Source: Acidimicrobiia bacterium (GTDB lineage: Bacteria > Actinomycetota > Acidimicrobiia > Spongiisociales > JAHEDJ01). From it: a stretch of DNA of 43,027 bases. Of the stretch, positions 27,221 to 40,182 are shown piece by piece (position 1 is the first letter of the stretch; each line of letters begins with the position of its first letter). Where the stretch lies: assembly GCA_029210695.1 (NCBI GenBank), contig JARGFH010000032.1, positions 1 to 43,027 on the forward strand. Reading direction: 5' to 3'. Both the position numbers and the translations under genes were made by a program. A model generated the notes under the pieces. That model did not search any database. It saw only the letters and a list, made by a program, of their open reading frames with translations, and was not told the origin of the DNA.

Positions 27221-27519
27221 TTGCCCACATCCGGACTCCGCGCGGCGTCGAGCGACACCCGAGAAAGATGCACTGAACAGGCGAAACTCCGGCGGCAAAG
27301 CAACCCACAATTAGTCCACAAGGTCGGTTTTCGCCGTCTTGAGACACCGGACGGGTCACCCATATACTCCGCTCCCGCCGGCAGGGCTTTGAACTACCGG
27401 GCACTTCCCCAACGTGCTGTACAAAAAAACGAGGTCGTGCGCGGCCCCGAATACGGAATAAGTCAGTACCCGGAGGTCGGGGAACGCTCTCCACATGGTG
27501 TGGAAATACCTGTGGACAT
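27221..27519. promoter_or_regulatory. DnaA-box cluster upstream of dnaA
   Basis: TTGCCCACA 27221, CAACCCACA 27301, TAGTCCACA 27312, CTCTCCACA 27487, TGTGGAAAT 27499, TGTGGACAT 27511. Confidence 0.7.
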
Positions 27520-27545
27520 CTAGCACGGAAGGTTGGAGGAAGACG

Positions 27546-28919
27546 TTGACGCAAGTTCAAGCGACAACCGACGATTGGAAGTCGTTCCGCAAGAGTTTGC
27601 AGGACCGGGTATCTCCGGTGACCTGGCAAACCTGGCTGGCGCCTCTGGATCTCAGAGAACCCGTTGACCGTGAGCTCACCCTCGTCGCGCCGAGCGATTT
27701 CCACCGGAGATGGATTGCCGAAAAACACCTCGCCGCAATCGAGGGAGCGGCTTTGGCGGTCTTTGGCCCGGACATCGAGGTTCAGTTGGAAACAGGAACG
27801 ATGACGCTGCCGTTCGACGAGGAACCGGAGCCCGAGGCCGCTGAACCGGAACCCCCTCCCCGCCCACGGCCCGCTGATCGGAAACCGAACCGGCCGGGTA
27901 GCCGTTTGCTGCCCCGGTATACGTTCGAACACTTCGTGGTTGGTCAGTCCAACCGTTTCGCCCACGCGGCGGCGATGGCCATCGCCGAGCAACCCGGGAC
28001 CCATTACAACCCCCTCTTCATCTACGGTGGGGCGGGCCTCGGCAAGACGCACCTACTGCAGGCCGTCGGTCATCACGCCCTGGAACTCAACCCGCTACAG
28101 GTTGTCCGCTACGTTTCCTCCGAGAACTTCTTCAACGAGTTCATCGACGGCATCCGCAGCAAACGGATGGACGAGTTCAAGGCTCGCTTTCGAAGCACCG
28201 ACGTTCTCTTGCTCGACGATGTGCAGTTCTTCGAAGGAAAGGAACAAATCCTCGAGGAGTTCTTCCACACGTTCAACACGCTGTATGAATCTGGCAAGCA
28301 GATGATGTTCAGCTCGGATCGACATCCGCGTCACCTGGACACTCTCGAGGATCGCCTCCGCAGCCGGTTCGAATGGGGACTACTTACCGACATCCAGCCG
28401 CCGGACGTCGAAACTCGTCTCGCCATTCTTCGCATGAACCTCGAATCCCTTCGCCAACCAGTGCCGGAAGATGTTCTGTTGTTCATTGCCGAGAGCGTCG
28501 AGAACAACATCCGGGAACTCGAAGGAGCAATGACCCGGGTCACCGCGTTCGCCGGCCTCACCGGCCAGCTGGTGAACCTCGAGATGGCGCAGGATGTGCT
28601 GCAGGATCTTGTTCCCTCCTCCACCCCCAGACCCCTGACCGCTGACCAGATCATGGACCGGGCGGCTGCGGCCTTCGGCTTCTCAGCAGTCGACCTCCGG
28701 GCGAAGAGCCGCCGGCAGCCGCTCGTACTCTCGCGTCAGGTGGCGATGTATCTGTGCCGCGAACTCACCGACCTCTCGCTCCCTCAAATCGGCAATCTCT
28801 TCAACCGTGATCACTCGACGGTGCTCCACGCGGTCGATAAGGTGAAGGGCCTGCTGCAGACCGATCATGCGGTTTTCGAACGGGTCACCGCGCTGTCCCA
28901 GGAGCTGCGCACAACATGA
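27546..28919 (+). CDS. dnaA: Chromosomal replication initiator DnaA
   Basis: YTFEHFVVGQSNRFA, YNPLFIYGGAGLGKTHLL, LLLDDVQF, RLRSRFEWG, RDHSTV. TTG start with GGAGG RBS at 27535. Confidence 0.98.
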   Translation: MTQVQATTDDWKSFRKSLQDRVSPVTWQTWLAPLDLREPVDRELTLVAPSDFHRRWIAEKHLAAIEGAALAVFGPDIEVQLETGTMTLPFDEEPEPEAAEPEPPPRPRPADRKPNRPGSRLLPRYTFEHFVVGQSNRFAHAAAMAIAEQPGTHYNPLFIYGGAGLGKTHLLQAVGHHALELNPLQVVRYVSSENFFNEFIDGIRSKRMDEFKARFRSTDVLLLDDVQFFEGKEQILEEFFHTFNTLYESGKQMMFSSDRHPRHLDTLEDRLRSRFEWGLLTDIQPPDVETRLAILRMNLESLRQPVPEDVLLFIAESVENNIRELEGAMTRVTAFAGLTGQLVNLEMAQDVLQDLVPSSTPRPLTADQIMDRAAAAFGFSAVDLRAKSRRQPLVLSRQVAMYLCRELTDLSLPQIGNLFNRDHSTVLHAVDKVKGLLQTDHAVFERVTALSQELRTT

Positions 28920-33648: not shown

Positions 33649-36081
33649 ATGACCGATCAAGACCCACACGGGAATATCCGCGAGATCGACATCAACGACG
33701 AGATGGCACAGTCGTTCGTCGACTATGCGATGTCCGTCATCGTCTCGCGTGCCCTTCCAGACGTCCGCGACGGACTCAAGCCGGTGCAGCGACGAATCAT
33801 CCATGCGATGAACGTGGCGAACATGGGTGCCGGATCACGCCACAAGAAGAGTGCCACGGTCGTCGGAGACACGATGGCTAAGTATCACCCTCATTCGAAC
33901 GACGCCATTTACGACGCGCTCGTTCGCCTCGGACAGTCGTTCTCACTTCGCCATCCGCTTGTTGATCCGCAGGGGAACTTCGGAACCATCGACGATCCCC
34001 CGGCCGCCATGAGGTACACGGAGTGCCGTCTTGCTCCGATCTCGACGAAGCTGCTCGAAGGGATCGACGAGAACACGGTCGACTTCGTAGAGAACTATGA
34101 CGGCGAGCATCAGGAGCCTTCCGTGCTTCCCGCCCGCTTCCCCAACCTGCTCGTCAACGGTTCACAGGGAATCGCAGTCGGCATGGCAACGAATATCGCC
34201 CCGCACAACCTCGGCGAGATAATCGACGCCTGCGTGTACGTGATCGAGAACCCGGATGCCGCCGTCGAGGACCTATTGCAGTTCGTGAAGGGACCAGACT
34301 TCCCGACCGGTGCATATATCGTCGGGACGGCGGGAATTCGGGATGCTCTCACCACCGGGCGTGGCTCGGTCAAGATGCGGGCGGTTGCCGACGTGCAAGA
34401 AGTACGCAAAGGGCGCAACGCCATCGTGGTGACCGAACTCCCGTACCAGGTCTCCAAAGACCGGGTCCTCGAGAAGATCGCCGCCCTCGTTCACGACAAG
34501 AAGATCACGGGCATTTCTGATCTCCGCAACGACTCGTCGGCACGGGTCGGTACCCGGCTGGTCATCGAATTGAAGAAGGACGCCGTTCCCCAAGTTGTGC
34601 TGAATCAGCTCTTCAAGCTGACCCAGTTGCAGGAGAACTTCAGCGTCAACACGGTGGCTTTGGTCGACGGAGTGCCCAGGACGCTCAACCTCGGGGAGAT
34701 CATCGGGCACTACCTCGATCACCAGATGGAGGTGATCGAACGGCGAACCCAGTTCCGTCTCGACAAGGCGAAGGCCAGGGCGCACATCCTCGAAGGCCTG
34801 ATCATTGCGGTCGACAATATCGATGAAGTCGTCCGGATCATCAGGGCATCGTCCGACACCCCGGAAGCGCGTGCCTCGCTGATTGAGAGGTTCAGCCTCA
34901 GCGAAATCCAGGCGAACGCCATTCTCGACATGCCGCTTCGACGGCTCACCGCCCTCGAAACCGAGAAGCTGCGGGCCGAACTGTCCGAGATCCATGCGCT
35001 CATCACTGAACTCGAGGCAATCCTGGCCGACCCTGCACGGCGGCGGGCCATCATCAAAGAGGAACTGATTGCGATTCGCGAGAAGCACGGGGAGCCTCGC
35101 CGATCGCGGATCGTTCCCGACGAAGGCGACCTTTCGCTCGAGGACTTGATTGCCGACGATGAACTGATCCTCACCGTGAGTAACAACGGTTACCTCAAGT
35201 CGGTGCTGGCGGCCACTTACCGGATCCAGGGTCGTGGTGGGCGCGGCGTGAAGGCTGCCGAACTGCGCGAGGACGATGTCGTCGAGTACATGGTTCACAC
35301 AACCGCCCATGCCTACCTGCTGTTCTTCACGAACAAGGGAAAGGTGCACCGGGTCAAGGCGCACACAATACCGAGGCAGGCCCGCACCTCGAAGGGCGTG
35401 TTGGCGCAATCCGTGTTGCCGATCGAGCCGGACGAGCGGATCGAAGCCATCGTCGACACGCGTGATTATGAGACCTCCCGTTTCCTCGTGATGGTGACCC
35501 GCAAGGGCGTTGTCAAGAAGACGTTGTTCCGCGAGTACGACTCGCGTCAATCGAGCCTCATCGCCATCAAACTGCAGGACGGCGACGAGGTGGTGGCAGT
35601 TCGAACAACCACCGGGGGCAACGATCTGCTGATTTTCACGGAACAGGGTATGGGAATTCGATTCAAGGAATCCGAGTTGCGTCCCATGGGTCGAGCTACT
35701 CAGGGCGTACGCGGCATCAGGCTGCGCGAGGGTGATCGGGTGGTGGCCGCCGCTTCGAGCGCCGACGGTCCCGAGGTGCTGATCCTGACGTCCGGCGGAT
35801 ACGGCAAGCGGACGGTCATGGATCAGTTCCGCGACCAGAAGCGCGGGGGATTGGGCGTGAAGGCGATCAAACTGACCCGGGTCCGCGGCAAGCTCAGCGG
35901 CGCCAGGGCGGTCGCCAAGGGCATGGAAGTGTTTGTGATCGCCTCTAACGGAGTCGCCATTCGAACGAAAGTCGATTCGGTCAGCCGGCAGAAGCGGGAG
36001 GCCAGTGGCGTGAAAGTAATCCGGCTTCCAGAGGGTGTGACGGTTAGTGCGTTCACGCCCGTCGTAATAGAAGAGGAGTAG
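33649..36081 (+). CDS. gyrA: DNA gyrase subunit A
   Basis: RALPDVRDGLKPVQRR, catalytic AAMRYTE, GyrA box QGRGGRG and pinwheel CTD repeats. Confidence 0.97.
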   Translation: MTDQDPHGNIREIDINDEMAQSFVDYAMSVIVSRALPDVRDGLKPVQRRIIHAMNVANMGAGSRHKKSATVVGDTMAKYHPHSNDAIYDALVRLGQSFSLRHPLVDPQGNFGTIDDPPAAMRYTECRLAPISTKLLEGIDENTVDFVENYDGEHQEPSVLPARFPNLLVNGSQGIAVGMATNIAPHNLGEIIDACVYVIENPDAAVEDLLQFVKGPDFPTGAYIVGTAGIRDALTTGRGSVKMRAVADVQEVRKGRNAIVVTELPYQVSKDRVLEKIAALVHDKKITGISDLRNDSSARVGTRLVIELKKDAVPQVVLNQLFKLTQLQENFSVNTVALVDGVPRTLNLGEIIGHYLDHQMEVIERRTQFRLDKAKARAHILEGLIIAVDNIDEVVRIIRASSDTPEARASLIERFSLSEIQANAILDMPLRRLTALETEKLRAELSEIHALITELEAILADPARRRAIIKEELIAIREKHGEPRRSRIVPDEGDLSLEDLIADDELILTVSNNGYLKSVLAATYRIQGRGGRGVKAAELREDDVVEYMVHTTAHAYLLFFTNKGKVHRVKAHTIPRQARTSKGVLAQSVLPIEPDERIEAIVDTRDYETSRFLVMVTRKGVVKKTLFREYDSRQSSLIAIKLQDGDEVVAVRTTTGGNDLLIFTEQGMGIRFKESELRPMGRATQGVRGIRLREGDRVVAAASSADGPEVLILTSGGYGKRTVMDQFRDQKRGGLGVKAIKLTRVRGKLSGARAVAKGMEVFVIASNGVAIRTKVDSVSRQKREASGVKVIRLPEGVTVSAFTPVVIEEE

Positions 36082-36192
36082 GCTGCGGGGCCGGTCGGGG
36101 AACTCGACGGGCCCCTACAGCGTTGAACGACTCGGTATCCCCCGCGCAGTCGGGAGTTGCCGGTACAATCTCGACGCTCAGCAAGGAGTGCC

Positions 36193-36678
36193 ATGACGTC
36201 GGTACGACGGGTACGCAGAATCATCAGAAAGTTCGACCCCTGGACCGTTCTCAAGGTCTCCGCGGTGTTGTATGCCGTCCTGGGTCTGGCGCTCGTGCTC
36301 GGTCTAGTCATCGTGTGGTCCGTCGTCAACGCCGTTGAGATCCCTCAGAAGATCGAAAGCTTCTTCACCGAACTGGCCCTGTTCGACTCAACGAACATAA
36401 TCCCGGATAGTGAGCAACTACTCCGGACCGCAGTGTTTCTGTCGATCGCGTGGACCGTGTTCATGACCGGCATGACCACGCTGGCGGCCGTCATGTACAA
36501 CCTCGTCAGTGATGTGGTGGGAGGCATCGAGGTGGTCGTGCTCGAAGAGACAATGAACGTCCCAGTTGCCCCACAACGACCCCCGGCCGGTTGGCAAACG
36601 AACCCGACGCCACCACCGAACAAGGAGACGTCAGGGGTCGACGAACCGACGCAGGAAGTAGCGACTACGCGGCGCTGA
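36193..36678 (+). CDS. DUF3566 membrane protein
   Basis: RKFDPWTVLKVS ... YNLVSDVVGGIEV. Follows gyrA, as is typical of actinobacteria. RBS AAGGAG. Confidence 0.85.
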   Translation: MTSVRRVRRIIRKFDPWTVLKVSAVLYAVLGLALVLGLVIVWSVVNAVEIPQKIESFFTELALFDSTNIIPDSEQLLRTAVFLSIAWTVFMTGMTTLAAVMYNLVSDVVGGIEVVVLEETMNVPVAPQRPPAGWQTNPTPPPNKETSGVDEPTQEVATTRR

Positions 36679-37417
36679 ACGAAGCGACTCCCAACCCGGC
36701 AGCCACACACGCTTTGAGATACTCGGCTGCGAGCACCTGGACCTCGATCTGACGGTCGACAGGCGGCCCATCGATGAGCATGATCGCCGCACCCGCCAGA
36801 GCGATCGCTCCGCTGAAGAGCGGGTCATCGACGACGGCCTCGAGTGCGGTTACGTGATGCGTTCCGACGAATCCCTCGGCTCGGACACTGATTGCCGTGA
36901 GCTCTCCATCGTATGGAGCATGCGCGAACATCAATCCCGCCGGCGAAGAAACCGGTGCCGGAACCGTTTCACACCATCGAACGCCGACAGGATCGGGGAA
37001 CATCACCGAACGATCCTGCCGGATTCGTTTGGGCGGAACTGTGATGGCTGCCACCACCGACTCGACCACATCGAAGCGCTCCATGAGGAGCACGGCAAGC
37101 GCCGCCGGTAAACCCGAGCCGATCGACGCGGCGGCAACCACCGGAGCCATACGGCTTGCCTTCCGGATGTGGCGGAGTGGGTGTGGTGTGATGATCGGCA
37201 CGTGCTGGTCGATTGCCGCCAGGATGCGAGGGTCGTCGATGGCGGCGTCCGAGACCATCACGTCCCACCCGGCGAGGTCATCGATCTTGGTGACCCTGGA
37301 ATCTCGTGAGCGCACACCGGTTCCCAACGTACCCAACGCCTCAACGCGCTCGTCAGCCAGCAACACCCGCCCGGCCCTCATGCCGATAGCGTCCGACGGG
37401 GCGAGTGCGACCCTCAT
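36665..37417 (-). CDS. Hypothetical protein, possibly a degenerate Rossmann-fold (saccharopine dehydrogenase-like)
   Basis: 250-aa ORF with coding-like composition. The N-terminal beta-alpha MRVALAPSDAIGMRAGRVLL lacks GxGxxG. Confidence 0.6.
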   Translation of the reverse strand: MRVALAPSDAIGMRAGRVLLADERVEALGTLGTGVRSRDSRVTKIDDLAGWDVMVSDAAIDDPRILAAIDQHVPIITPHPLRHIRKASRMAPVVAAASIGSGLPAALAVLLMERFDVVESVVAAITVPPKRIRQDRSVMFPDPVGVRWCETVPAPVSSPAGLMFAHAPYDGELTAISVRAEGFVGTHHVTALEAVVDDPLFSGAIALAGAAIMLIDGPPVDRQIEVQVLAAEYLKACVAAGLGVASFSAA

Positions 37418-37574
37418 CCGGCGATGTCGCGCGGGACCCACGTTCCCGCTTCGGCCGAGGGCGGAGAGCCGTGGCGCGCTCTATGCAGAAGCACCGCGAT
37501 GAGCAGTGAGATCAGGCCGAGGGATGGAAGAAGCGTGCGGGTCCTCACTTCGGGGAGTGTAGGTGATTGCGCTC

Positions 37575-37835
37575 TCAGGAAGCAGATCTGAGGCGCCGAC
37601 GTCTGCGCAGCGGCTGTAGTTCGTCCTGCGTCAACCCACCCCAGATGCCGTAGCGGGGCCCGGTCTGGAGCGCATAATCGAGGCAGTCGGCTTTGACCGG
37701 GCAGCCTGCACAGATCGCCCGTGCTTGCTGGAGTGAGCTCGTCGTCGAGGTCGATTCCCCTCCGAAGAAGAGGGAGGGATCATGTGACCTGCACGATGCT
37801 CGTGCACGCCATGAGCCGTCGGGAGGAAGTTCCAT
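37575..37835 (-). CDS. WhiB-family Fe-S transcriptional regulator
   Basis: WRARASC, LFF, C-x2-C (ICAGCPV), DCLDYAL, GIWGGLT and a basic tail. Confidence 0.94.
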   Translation of the reverse strand: MELPPDGSWRARASCRSHDPSLFFGGESTSTTSSLQQARAICAGCPVKADCLDYALQTGPRYGIWGGLTQDELQPLRRRRRLRSAS

Positions 37836-37928
37836 ACCTTCTTGTACGTCGCCGCCAATCGTTGCGGATGATCACAATGAGCCCGGCGACCCATGTCTTT
37901 GCGTGGCCACTCTGCGTAGTATTGAAGT

Positions 37929-38150
37929 GCGAGTTGGTTCCCCGGGTTCGATTGGGCCACCGGGGACCATCCGGGCGCGCAGAGGGCACGTTGTCGTCAG
38001 GGAATCTTTCAACGTGTTTCCGGTGCCCGGGCTCGGACACGGGCGTCCGGCTTACCGGGCGCTCGTGGCTGCTCCAGCTCTTGGGGAGAGCAAGTGAACG
38101 GACGTGGGGACCTGAAAGAATCCCCCCTACATCGGGGGGATTCTTCGCTT
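37929..38150 (+). ncRNA. Candidate structured non-coding RNA
   Basis: Four consecutive hairpins, two with multiple G-U wobble pairs on the + strand. A possible -10 TAGTAT lies at 37917 and a terminator at 38116-38145. No credible ORF. Confidence 0.45.
38116..38145. terminator. Bidirectional intrinsic terminator
   Basis: AAGAATCCCCCC-tacatc-GGGGGGATTCTT, T-rich on both sides. Confidence 0.75.
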
Positions 38151-38169
38151 ATCGGGCCCGGTGGGGCGG

Positions 38170-39186
38170 TCACCGAGTCTTCTGCATGGCCCGGTGCTCG
38201 ATCGTGCCATCGGCGTGAAGGGCGAAGCGTCCTTCTGTTCTGGCATGCACGGGGTCCGGCCGGGACCATTCCCAGTCTCCGAACCCTGTTCGTCGGTAAT
38301 CGTCGACGGCGGTACGTAACTCCTCGGCGGAGTTCATGACGAACGGACCCATCTGGAATACCGGAGCCCCGATTGGCTTCCCCTGGAGGAGGAGAAGCTC
38401 GGCGGGCTCGCCGTTGTTGGCCATGGGTGCGGCTGGCTCCGACCGGAGAGTGACACCGCTTCCCTTCGCGATGCTCGTTGACGCAACGGTTACTTCGGAA
38501 CCTTCGAAGAAGTGCAGCATCCGGTTGGTTCCAGCCGGGGCAGCGGGGAGATCCCAGCGGGCGCCCGAACCGAGTCGGATCAACCAGATGCCCAGTTCTG
38601 TTCCTGATTGTGAAGCCCACGAATTCGGCGGAGCCGGCGGGCCATTGAGCCCGGCGAGGCTGCCGGCAATCACGTCCACCTCAACGCCGGGACCCGGCGA
38701 CAGCGTGGGGATGTCCTCACCCCACAGCATCGAGAAGTGGGCCGGCACCAGCTTTGACCCCGGGGGCAGATTGAGCCAGATCTGGAAGAGTTCGAGAGGA
38801 TTCGGGCCGGCCGGGTTGATGAGCGGGAACATCTCCGCATGCATGATCCCGTTTCCGGTGGTCAACCACTGGACGTCGCCCTCGCCATACCGGGCGGTCG
38901 CTCCTAGGGAATCGGAGTGGTCTACGTATCCCCGCCGGACCACCGTGACCGTTTCGAATCCCCGATGGGGGTGCTGCGGGAACCCGGGCACGCTGCTGCC
39001 GTGATACATGCTCCAACCGTCGAGATAAGAGAAGTCCGAACCGATGTTCCGACCGTTCAGCGGGGCGTCCGGCCCGAGGGCGGTGTTGCCGGCCGGATAG
39101 TCGTCGACGTGGTGCACAGTGAAGACGAACGGGTCGAGACCATCCCACGGAAAACCTAGTTCCACAACATCTAATACCGGATTCAT
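38170..39186 (-). CDS. Pirin-family protein
   Basis: DPFVFTVHH, GFPQHPHRGFETVT, HSDSLG, QWLTTGNGIMHAEM, QIWLNLP, GPFVMN. Confidence 0.94.
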   Translation of the reverse strand: MNPVLDVVELGFPWDGLDPFVFTVHHVDDYPAGNTALGPDAPLNGRNIGSDFSYLDGWSMYHGSSVPGFPQHPHRGFETVTVVRRGYVDHSDSLGATARYGEGDVQWLTTGNGIMHAEMFPLINPAGPNPLELFQIWLNLPPGSKLVPAHFSMLWGEDIPTLSPGPGVEVDVIAGSLAGLNGPPAPPNSWASQSGTELGIWLIRLGSGARWDLPAAPAGTNRMLHFFEGSEVTVASTSIAKGSGVTLRSEPAAPMANNGEPAELLLLQGKPIGAPVFQMGPFVMNSAEELRTAVDDYRRTGFGDWEWSRPDPVHARTEGRFALHADGTIEHRAMQKTR

Positions 39187-39270: not shown

Positions 39271-40182
39271 TCACAGCCCGGAATCGGGGCTCACTCGAGC
39301 GAGTTCGCGACGCGCCAGGCCGGACTTGATGAACAGCCAGGGTGCCCCATAGGCGCCCCAGAACCCCACGACCGCATAGCGGAGCAACCGGAACACGAGG
39401 GCGGGCTCCAGGCCGTTCAGGACGGTACGCAGGCCCCACCAGAGCACGACGAGGACGAAGCCGCCGACAACGAACCGACCTACCCTGGAAATGACTGGTC
39501 CGGCGGTCGCGAAGCGGAGAGAGCGCCGCTCGAGGATGACTCCGAAACCCATCCCGATGAAGGTTCCTCCGGCGGTGACGACGTCGTCGGTCGGTGCGGC
39601 GATCATCGCCATCAGGGGGAGTGCGGCGGTTAGTGCCAGTTGGCGGTTGAGAGGCAAACGACAGAACCACGCCTCGGCGCGCCGACCGTACTTCAGCCAG
39701 ACGAACAAGACGAGCATGCCCAGAATGAAGCCACCCAGGATGTCGGTGGGGAAGTGAACGCCCAGGTAGATCCGCGAAAGCCCGACGCCCAGCGTGAGCA
39801 AGCCGGCGAGAAACCAGACCCAGCGGCGTCTCGTCTCGGTGGCGATGAAGCCCCAGACCACCACTGCACTCTGGGTGTGCCCGCTGGGGAGTCCGTATCC
39901 GCTCGCGTCGACTAGGCGAACCACCCGGTCGTCGTACGTGAACGGACGTGGTTGGCCGCCTAGCGTCTTGGCGACGGTGTTCACGAGACTCGACGACAGG
40001 GTGACGATCATCAGGCGAACGCCGGTGGCACGGTCGACACTCCAGTAGACCAGGGGCAGCAAGATCAGGTAGAACTCCTCGTCACCCAGGAACGTGAAAG
40101 CCTTGAAGAGGGTGTCTAGTCCCGGGCTGAACTGCTGGAACCACAGGACGAGATCGATGCCTCGGTCGAGCAAGGTGTCCAT
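39271..40182 (-). CDS. PAP2-family membrane phosphatase
   Basis: K-x6-RP (KTLGGQPRP), PSGH, SRIYLGVHFPTD and multiple TM helices. Confidence 0.92.
   Translation of the reverse strand: MDTLLDRGIDLVLWFQQFSPGLDTLFKAFTFLGDEEFYLILLPLVYWSVDRATGVRLMIVTLSSSLVNTVAKTLGGQPRPFTYDDRVVRLVDASGYGLPSGHTQSAVVVWGFIATETRRRWVWFLAGLLTLGVGLSRIYLGVHFPTDILGGFILGMLVLFVWLKYGRRAEAWFCRLPLNRQLALTAALPLMAMIAAPTDDVVTAGGTFIGMGFGVILERRSLRFATAGPVISRVGRFVVGGFVLVVLWWGLRTVLNGLEPALVFRLLRYAVVGFWGAYGAPWLFIKSGLARRELARVSPDSGL

Follow-up and report, generated by a model that had tools for sequence, protein, structure and literature searches.

The stretch of DNA analysed here (the window, 43,027 nt in all) is an origin-proximal cluster, with yidC and jag on the - strand and dnaA (27495-28919), dnaN, recF and gyrB on the + strand. 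The dnaA-dnaN-recF-gyrB-gyrA block spans 27.5-36.1 kb of the window, which confirms the placing of our element close to oriC in the original prediction. The element itself lies in an intergenic gap, and the genes around it are as follows:

33649-36081, + strand, gyrA
36157-36678, + strand, DUF3566 membrane protein
36665-37441, - strand, 'p258', a 258-aa protein with no Pfam or NCBIfam family
37575-37835, - strand, whiB (PF02467), a neighbour of the element and not a part of it
37836-38169, the 334-bp intergenic gap with the element
38170-39186, - strand, pirin, convergent with the + strand element
39271-40182, - strand, PAP2 phosphatase

The two genes that flank the gap, whiB and pirin, both lie on the - strand, so that any + strand transcript arising between them would diverge from whiB and converge on pirin. 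A structured, stand-alone RNA of just this orientation had been predicted, and when the sequence was checked all of its stems and boxes were found in place. The parts of the element in this genome (G000) are:

37876-37895, unstranded, imperfect palindrome AATGAG-N8-CCCATG from the six-genome alignment (AATGGG-N8-CCCATT in relatives)
37907-37922, + strand, invariant block CCACTCTGCGTAGTAT, which holds the -10-like TAGTAT (37917-37922)
37929-38073, + strand, conserved structured core (GCGAG, P1, P2 and P3)
37929-37933, + strand, GCGAG, which can pair with CTCGG (38032-38036)
37935-37945/37960-37969, + strand, P1, with a small hairpin GGTTC-GATT-GGGCC (37945-37958)
37971-37978/38023-38030, + strand, outer stem of the long hairpin P2, whose inner stem is GGGCACGTTG/CAACGTGTTT
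38036-38070, + strand, P3, a 13-15-bp hairpin (38038-38067 in the original prediction)
38074-38100, + strand, variable spacer, differing in length and sequence between genomes
38077-38091, + strand, P4, formed by the spacer in this genome
38104-38109, + strand, invariant GTGGGG, which can pair with the invariant CCCAT (37890-37894), extended by GAC/GTC, as a long-range closing helix H1
38116-38145, unstranded, terminator-like hairpin AAGAATCCCCCC-loop-GGGGGGATTCTT, rich in GC, 24 nt beyond the stop codon of pirin

Conservation and gene neighbourhood

BLASTN of the gap against 60 relatives, 6 of them from the same genus, found the element in five of those six at 74-82% identity (82% in G001, 74% in G002, 77% in G003, 74% in G004 and 75% in G005), the matched part being 37876-38066, or about 190 nt; the sixth, G006, is only 56% complete. 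The other 54 genomes gave two matches of 30 nt or less (E 0.003-0.006), which we treated as chance. At the same loci the flanking DNA is 75-77% identical in the DUF3566 region, 65-72% in the PAP2 gene, 69% in whiB and 64-67% in the p258 region (with one short 71-nt stretch at 75%); conservation of the gap matches that of the best-conserved gene nearby. The G002-like copy is 87% identical to the G003 and G005 copies over 202 nt, with almost nothing else in these loci aligning, and the p258 protein is only about 50% identical between clades. The core is 74-87% identical between clades and 95-99% identical within two close pairs. Along one such pair, G002 and G004, identity runs from 73% (37836-37875) through 87% (37876-37928) to 95% in the core (37929-38073), drops to 58% in the spacer (38074-38100) and returns to 88% at 38101-38150. 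The spacer reaches 56-58% identity even within close pairs, and relatives form different local hairpins there.

A covariance model built on the core (CM R1) gave the five relatives scores of 128-168 bits. Run on the order's 144 other genomes, it returned one weak match (G061, 30 bits, E 0.004), and in 149 further genomes of the class the same match alone, under stricter filters that can lose weak matches. We did not accept G061 as a homologue, since the matched sequence is a perfect GC hairpin right after a stop codon, terminator-like and resembling P3 only. With filters off, the best score in 24 p258 loci of other families was 21.6 bits. Pattern scans of genome and metagenome contigs used 18 specified bases and gave chance matches in unrelated phyla; among 200 of the scan matches listed, CM R1 kept five, four with the same bit scores as known copies and the fifth (L194) 99% identical to the G002 copy. 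On present evidence, the element is confined to one genus in the genomes searched. Within this genome it is also single copy, its only match in 3.9 Mb being the element itself and the self-complement of its 3' hairpin, which disposes of the concern that the stems might be dispersed REP copies.

The gene content on either side varies. The whiB gene adjoins the element in G001, G003 and G005; G002 and G004 lack it there and have p258 as the next gene. Pirin lies beside the element here and in G001 but in none of the four other relatives, in which the shared 3' hairpin is directly followed by the PAP2 gene. Because there are carriers without whiB and carriers without pirin, the element is independent of both. 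A functional tie to whiB through a shared divergent promoter, part of the original prediction, is therefore given up, two of the five relatives carrying the element without whiB. Pirin appears to have been gained or lost between the PAP2 stop codon and the shared hairpin, being present only here and in G001. Homologues of p258 occur in 57 of the 81 genomes of the order (30-54% identity outside G001), where the gene is conserved beside the gyrA-DUF3566 block, and among the p258 loci compared across the order whiB adjoins it only in this genus; the comparisons include G010 and G021, which are flagged unpublished, and the conclusions are independent of these two.

Two further observations concern the side of the gap that faces whiB. 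The ten bases just upstream of the whiB start (within 37836-37875) differ completely between this genome and G001 (L009), with a GAAGG Shine-Dalgarno-like run on the - strand in the former and a TATAAT-like sequence on the - strand, overlapping the ATG, in the latter, and the usage of the whiB start or leader may differ between these close relatives. The genomes without whiB, G002 and G004, carry a 17-bp hairpin TTTCTCAGCAATACTG...CAGTATTGCTGAGAAA located 16-20 nt before the conserved palindrome of the element (L194:963-1011, and the same place in L010 and L012), whose stem shows a compensated A-T to G-C change between the two; candidate roles are an extension of the RNA at its 5' end, a piece of the p258 leader and a terminator.

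No open reading frame is conserved, every frame in the alignment being interrupted by indels, some of one base and one of 4 nt in the P3 loop. Small ORFs on either strand were thus rejected: their frames are not kept, and two genomes have ATA in place of the ATG at 37877.

Known RNA families do not account for the element either. Rfam 15 gave nothing in the window at gathering thresholds, scattered chance-level matches only at E up to 10 in 37500-38400, and likewise no family for the element at the relatives' loci; the families considered at the outset (Ms1, 6S and 6C) gave no match. ARAGORN found no tRNA or tmRNA in the window, and we dismissed a tRNA- or tmRNA-like piece in the P1 region, where GGGTTCGATTGG forms no T-arm. 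A divergent RNase P RNA or SRP RNA was also discarded, because both are found elsewhere in the same genome.

Consensus structure and strand

Folded on the + strand, 37917-38150 has a minimum free energy of -115.6 kcal/mol, against -97.6 +/- 5.2 for 200 shuffles (z -3.48, 0 shuffles as good); the - strand reaches -101.0 against -80.1 +/- 5.0 (z -4.22). Because the - strand also beats its own shuffles, single-sequence folding does not pick a strand. Moreover, since the + shuffles fold 17.5 kcal/mol better than the - shuffles (a matter of G+T richness), the raw energy advantage of the + strand is mostly base composition.

The alignment of six genomes does discriminate. The RNAalifold consensus is -90.0 kcal/mol on the + strand and -68.1 on the - strand, and as controls we shuffled columns within conservation classes, which holds both composition and conservation. 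For the core on the + strand this gave -62.8 against -44.7 +/- 3.4 (z -5.31, with 0 of 150 shuffles as good), and for the core on the - strand a z of -1.93 (3 of 150 as good). At full length z was -8.1 on the + strand and -6.6 on the - strand (0 of 150 each), a difference that is small because the 3' hairpin is symmetric. Folding P1, P2 and P3 separately in the six genomes, we found the + strand more stable in all 18 genome-by-helix comparisons, with more G-U pairs than on the - strand and 1-6 of them on the + strand in P1/P2/P3 of each genome, as anticipated from the argument that the G-U mismatches of the stems favour a + strand RNA.

The consensus fold branches into three to five separate hairpins. 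P3, in which 11 of 15 pairs are invariant, keeps its arms while its loop measures 4 or 8 nt; retention of the arms despite the change in loop length fits a hairpin, and not a fixed-spacing protein site on DNA. Covariation is sparse, and core counts are not above shuffles. The alignment comprises only six sequences in three clades, and 29 of the 49 core pairs are silent on structure because they never vary; only 2 have double changes. Paired cells make up 93.5% of the core against 92.7% in shuffles (33/500), and neither this fraction nor the covariation score of the core exceeds its shuffles. Read by hand, three lineages differ at one pair of the P2 inner stem (U-A, C-G or G-C), and where this genome has outer G-U pairs the others have G-C or A-U; compensatory changes affect 4 of the 13 pairs in the 3' hairpin.

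Three of the predicted features stand in part. P4 and the pairing of GGTTCCCC with GGGGACC both exist in this genome, and roughly in G001, but the first lies within, and the second involves, a non-conserved region. The hairpin offered as a + strand terminator is present at 38116-38145; it is symmetric, however, and the consensus scan calls it on the - strand (as a pirin terminator), which has the better T-tail, and not on the + strand. It may belong to the convergent gene. It stays beside the element whether pirin or the PAP2 gene follows, and is probably bidirectional.

The claims that the element is conserved, non-coding, structured, better read from the + strand and outside any Rfam family have thus all held up under BLASTN, the alignment, the alifold controls and the helix comparisons. 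Judged as a stand-alone small RNA, it has the conservation, the single copy and the lack of a frame; its promoter is represented by a TANNNT box only and its expression by one low-depth RNA-library contig. The element is conserved, present in a single copy and without a coding frame, it has a strand-biased consensus structure and it belongs to no known family. As an explanation of the whole, we favour, at a probability of roughly 0.6, a structured non-coding RNA encoded by a single-copy gene on the + strand, with its core at 37929-38073 (P1, P2 and P3).

Transcript ends, and alternatives to a + strand RNA

The promoter, both ends and the expression level of such an RNA are all inferred. The predicted box is conserved, as TAGTAT in five of the six genomes and TATTAT in one (G001); six variable nucleotides separate it from the invariant GCGAG. 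A two-hexamer promoter scan of the alignment found nothing, and we take TANNNT to be an actinobacterial -10. In one arrangement (model A), to which we give a little less than an even chance, TAGTAT is the -10 box, the start is at G 37929, seven bases after the box, and the RNA opens with the GCGAG/CTCGG helix. The palindrome, centred about 42 bp upstream of this predicted start, would then sit near -42, the classical place for a dimeric activator. Its right half, CGACCCAT, is invariant across the six genomes, and the two variants of its left arm give A-C on the + strand and wobble G-U on the - strand only. A whole-genome search found no second copy of the arrangement of palindrome and promoter block, and hence no regulon, nor was a promoter box found to be shared with another place in the genome.

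The palindrome 37876-37895 is either a DNA operator of this kind or, should transcription begin further upstream, a hairpin at the 5' end of the RNA or one strand of helix H1. An upstream start (model B) we hold to be possible, at something like one chance in three. Extending the alignment to 37870 adds two helices: the closing helix CCCAT(GTC)/(GAC)GTGGG between two invariant blocks, and a hairpin CCACTCTGC/GCGAGTTGG. The block CCACTCTGCGTAGTAT would alternatively be the 5' strand and loop of hairpin H2, paired with GCGAGTTGG. Of the 8 pairs of H1, 6 never vary and 1 is changed on both sides, and the helix is broken in two of the six genomes. In the extended model the outer part of P1 is replaced by a helix enclosing P2 and P3, which covaries in G002-G005 (three sequence versions) and is weak in G000 and G001. 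Paired cells rise to 93.9% against 91.2% in shuffles (0/500) and the covariation score to 0.179 against 0.135 (0/500), although related sequences can beat every shuffle without structure and 0/500 is here not a probability; 10 pairs have double changes, a count that 24 of 500 shuffles match. The remaining chance falls to other arrangements of the ends, such as an RNA ending at P3, the last hairpin serving only the convergent gene.

Two contigs bear on these arrangements, neither of which shows strand or true ends, DNA carry-over being possible in both. An estuary metatranscriptome (X1) holds one 158-nt contig of depth 3.8 that covers 37866-38009 with 3 differences, beginning 63 nt upstream of the start predicted from TAGTAT (37929) and stopping before the whiB coding sequence, the low depth making this stop weak evidence. 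The 7 unaligned bases at each of its ends are presumably adapter read-through of a 144-nt insert, because other X1 contigs carry adapter sequence at their ends. A run of unrecorded library type, X2, has a 194-nt contig covering 37893-38086, which likewise begins upstream of 37929. Three runs were compared over 37400-38600, at a depth too low for uncovered parts to mean anything. A start at the G that lies seven bases past TAGTAT would give an RNA of about 220 nt, and one near 37860, as the single X1 contig suggests, an RNA of about 280-290 nt. In either case it would probably run from the core through the variable spacer to the hairpin at 38116-38145.

The same contig can be read in the other direction, as it reaches toward whiB past the predicted + start. 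The element would then be the 5' leader of the - strand unit, whiB or, where whiB is absent, p258, acting as a cis-regulatory RNA like the long leaders of the WhiB family; that of whiB7 reportedly combines a uORF with an attenuator. Both flanking genes being on the - strand, any transcript bound for whiB or p258 from this side must cross the DNA of the element, but the contig ends before the whiB coding sequence (weakly, given its depth), the downstream gene varies between genomes, and reading the alignment we saw no conserved -10-like box on the - strand between the 3' hairpin and P3. The structure divides similarly: the palindrome variants pair on the - strand only, and that strand beats its single-sequence shuffles (z -4.2), whereas its core consensus is barely better than column shuffles (z -1.9, 3/150) and P1, P2 and P3 are weaker on it in 18 of 18 comparisons. 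We consider a - strand leader unlikely. Its narrower form, a leader of the whiB gene as such, is contradicted by the whiB-less carriers G002 and G004 and by the opposite strand bias.

Alternatively, the gap could act as DNA, a dense operator and promoter block for its divergent and convergent neighbours in which the hairpins are incidental inverted repeats. The palindrome with its invariant half-site, and a sequence that is fixed where pairing alone would permit change (the 29 of 49 core pairs), speak for a role of this kind. Yet operators would hardly call for conservation that runs almost unbroken over about 145 bp, the box-plus-promoter arrangement has no second copy in the genome, the loops of P3 and P1 vary by 1-4 nt while the arms are kept, the changes are G-U biased to one strand, and compensatory changes occur in the terminator and P2. 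Taken as a whole explanation, we regard a DNA role as improbable.

Relation to known RNAs and a possible role

One comparison in layout is with 6C RNA (RF01066) and other chaperone-independent actinobacterial sRNAs, which, as proposed for the element, are units of their own between protein genes, with GC-rich hairpins and a terminator-like 3' hairpin. The element is, however, two to three times longer than 6C and lacks its pair of C-rich loops, those of P1 and P3 not being C-rich, and RF01066 has no match in 37500-38400 at E up to 10. Another family has, at L295:2430-2700 (G028), a distinct hairpin-rich stretch, about 270 nt long with a strong terminal hairpin and 92% identical in G151; its 6C match, at 29.8 bits, stays below the 47-bit cut-off, and a tRNA gene on the - strand comes after it. 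The stretch is on the same side of p258, and before it stands the motif AATGGGCCGG...GACCCAT, found also before the element. The L295 stretch was considered as a member, on the 21.6 bits it scores with filters off, and rejected in view of the 6C match and a marginal alignment (z 0.5-3.9).

Riboswitch-controlled antisense RNAs are a further point of comparison; reported cases are the cobalamin riboswitch with AspocR in Listeria and an S-box antisense RNA in Clostridium acetobutylicum. The likeness is that the structured + strand RNA has no gene of its own strand after it and faces a convergent gene; the difference is that the element matches no aptamer family and that nothing points to a ligand. 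The cobalamin riboswitch model (RF00174) found nothing in the window or at the five relatives' loci, in a search that does detect such riboswitches, divergent from the p258 homologue, at two loci of one other family, in two genomes (L275:1202-1331 and L277:1190-1325; 50.6 and 58.4 bits). In these loci a periplasmic-binding-protein-like gene, by our reading of the sequence, comes after the riboswitch, whose site is the syntenic counterpart of that of the element. We rejected descent of the element from this riboswitch, local alignment being at chance level save for one off-target stretch. The invariant blocks of the element can pair in mutually exclusive ways, GCGAG with CTCGG or CCACTC and CCCAT with ATGGG or GTGGG, and it is conceivable, if very improbable, that the RNA is a conformational switch that senses a signal, + strand transcription either stopping at the hairpins or running antisense into PAP2 (or pirin). 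This would mean a new sensor class and antisense read-through control of an envelope-lipid phosphatase, the same site being occupied by a cobalamin riboswitch in a sister family.

The least credible reading is that the element is the RNA-polymerase-binding RNA of this lineage, a functional analogue of 6S or Ms1. The 6S model (RF00013) gave no match in the window at its gathering threshold, none at E up to 10 in 37500-38400 and none genome-wide at E up to 1, so that RF00013 finds no 6S in this 98%-complete genome; but the same model matches just 5 of 14 control genomes, and none in Corynebacterium, and its silence means little. 6S binds the RNA polymerase holoenzyme and Ms1 the core enzyme. 6S folds as a rod with a closing stem, a large central bubble and a terminal stem, whereas the consensus fold of the element is branched and has no central bubble. 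What the element has in common with 6S, and with the Ms1 of mycobacteria and Streptomyces, is that it would be a stand-alone structured RNA of a few hundred nucleotides (220-290 nt) in an actinobacterial genome without detectable 6S, with ends that may pair via CCCAT/GTGGG; its presence in a metatranscriptome would fit an abundant RNA. Against this, no covariance model matches, and the element is found in one genus only among the genomes searched, whereas an RNA of this kind should be widespread. Ms1 is described in PMC9130861 as about 300 nt long with a central bubble, and its locus as lying between a HAD-IB hydrolase/phosphoserine phosphatase gene and an oxidoreductase gene, whereas the element has whiB, an unclassified 258-aa protein, pirin and a PAP2 phosphatase for neighbours; the main text of that paper makes no mention of Acidimicrobiia. 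With no model match, a branched fold and none of the Ms1 synteny genes, the suggested Ms1/6S-like identity finds no support.

We therefore return to a + strand non-coding RNA, whose mode of action we infer from its neighbourhood and its pattern of conservation. Action in trans is the default, and is to be expected because the element has no tie to whiB and no + gene downstream. In most of its helices the sequence itself, and not just the pairing, is invariant, and loops change length. Since pairing alone does not require such conservation of helix sequence, this argues for a sequence-specific partner, although several mutually exclusive pairings would also explain the invariance. Tentatively, then, the RNA may be in the main a platform to which a sequence-specific partner (most likely a protein) binds, an idea to which we give rather less than an even chance within the explanation as a whole. 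The main alternative, somewhat doubtful, is that it acts by pairing, via the GTGGGG block or the P2 apical loop (CA-GGA-TCTT, partly conserved).

Two tempting readings of the locus are corrected by this analysis, in that the element has no link to WhiB and lacks the marks of 6S or Ms1. What is left is an orphan structured sRNA candidate, new to Rfam 15 and most likely real, the value of which is as a lead for metatranscriptome mapping and not as a solved mechanism. To our knowledge, the non-coding RNAs of Acidimicrobiia, uncultured bacteria that are abundant in aquatic habitats, are almost unknown. To these the element adds a well-delimited candidate RNA family, absent from Rfam 15, with unusually invariant helix sequences that point to a specific partner.
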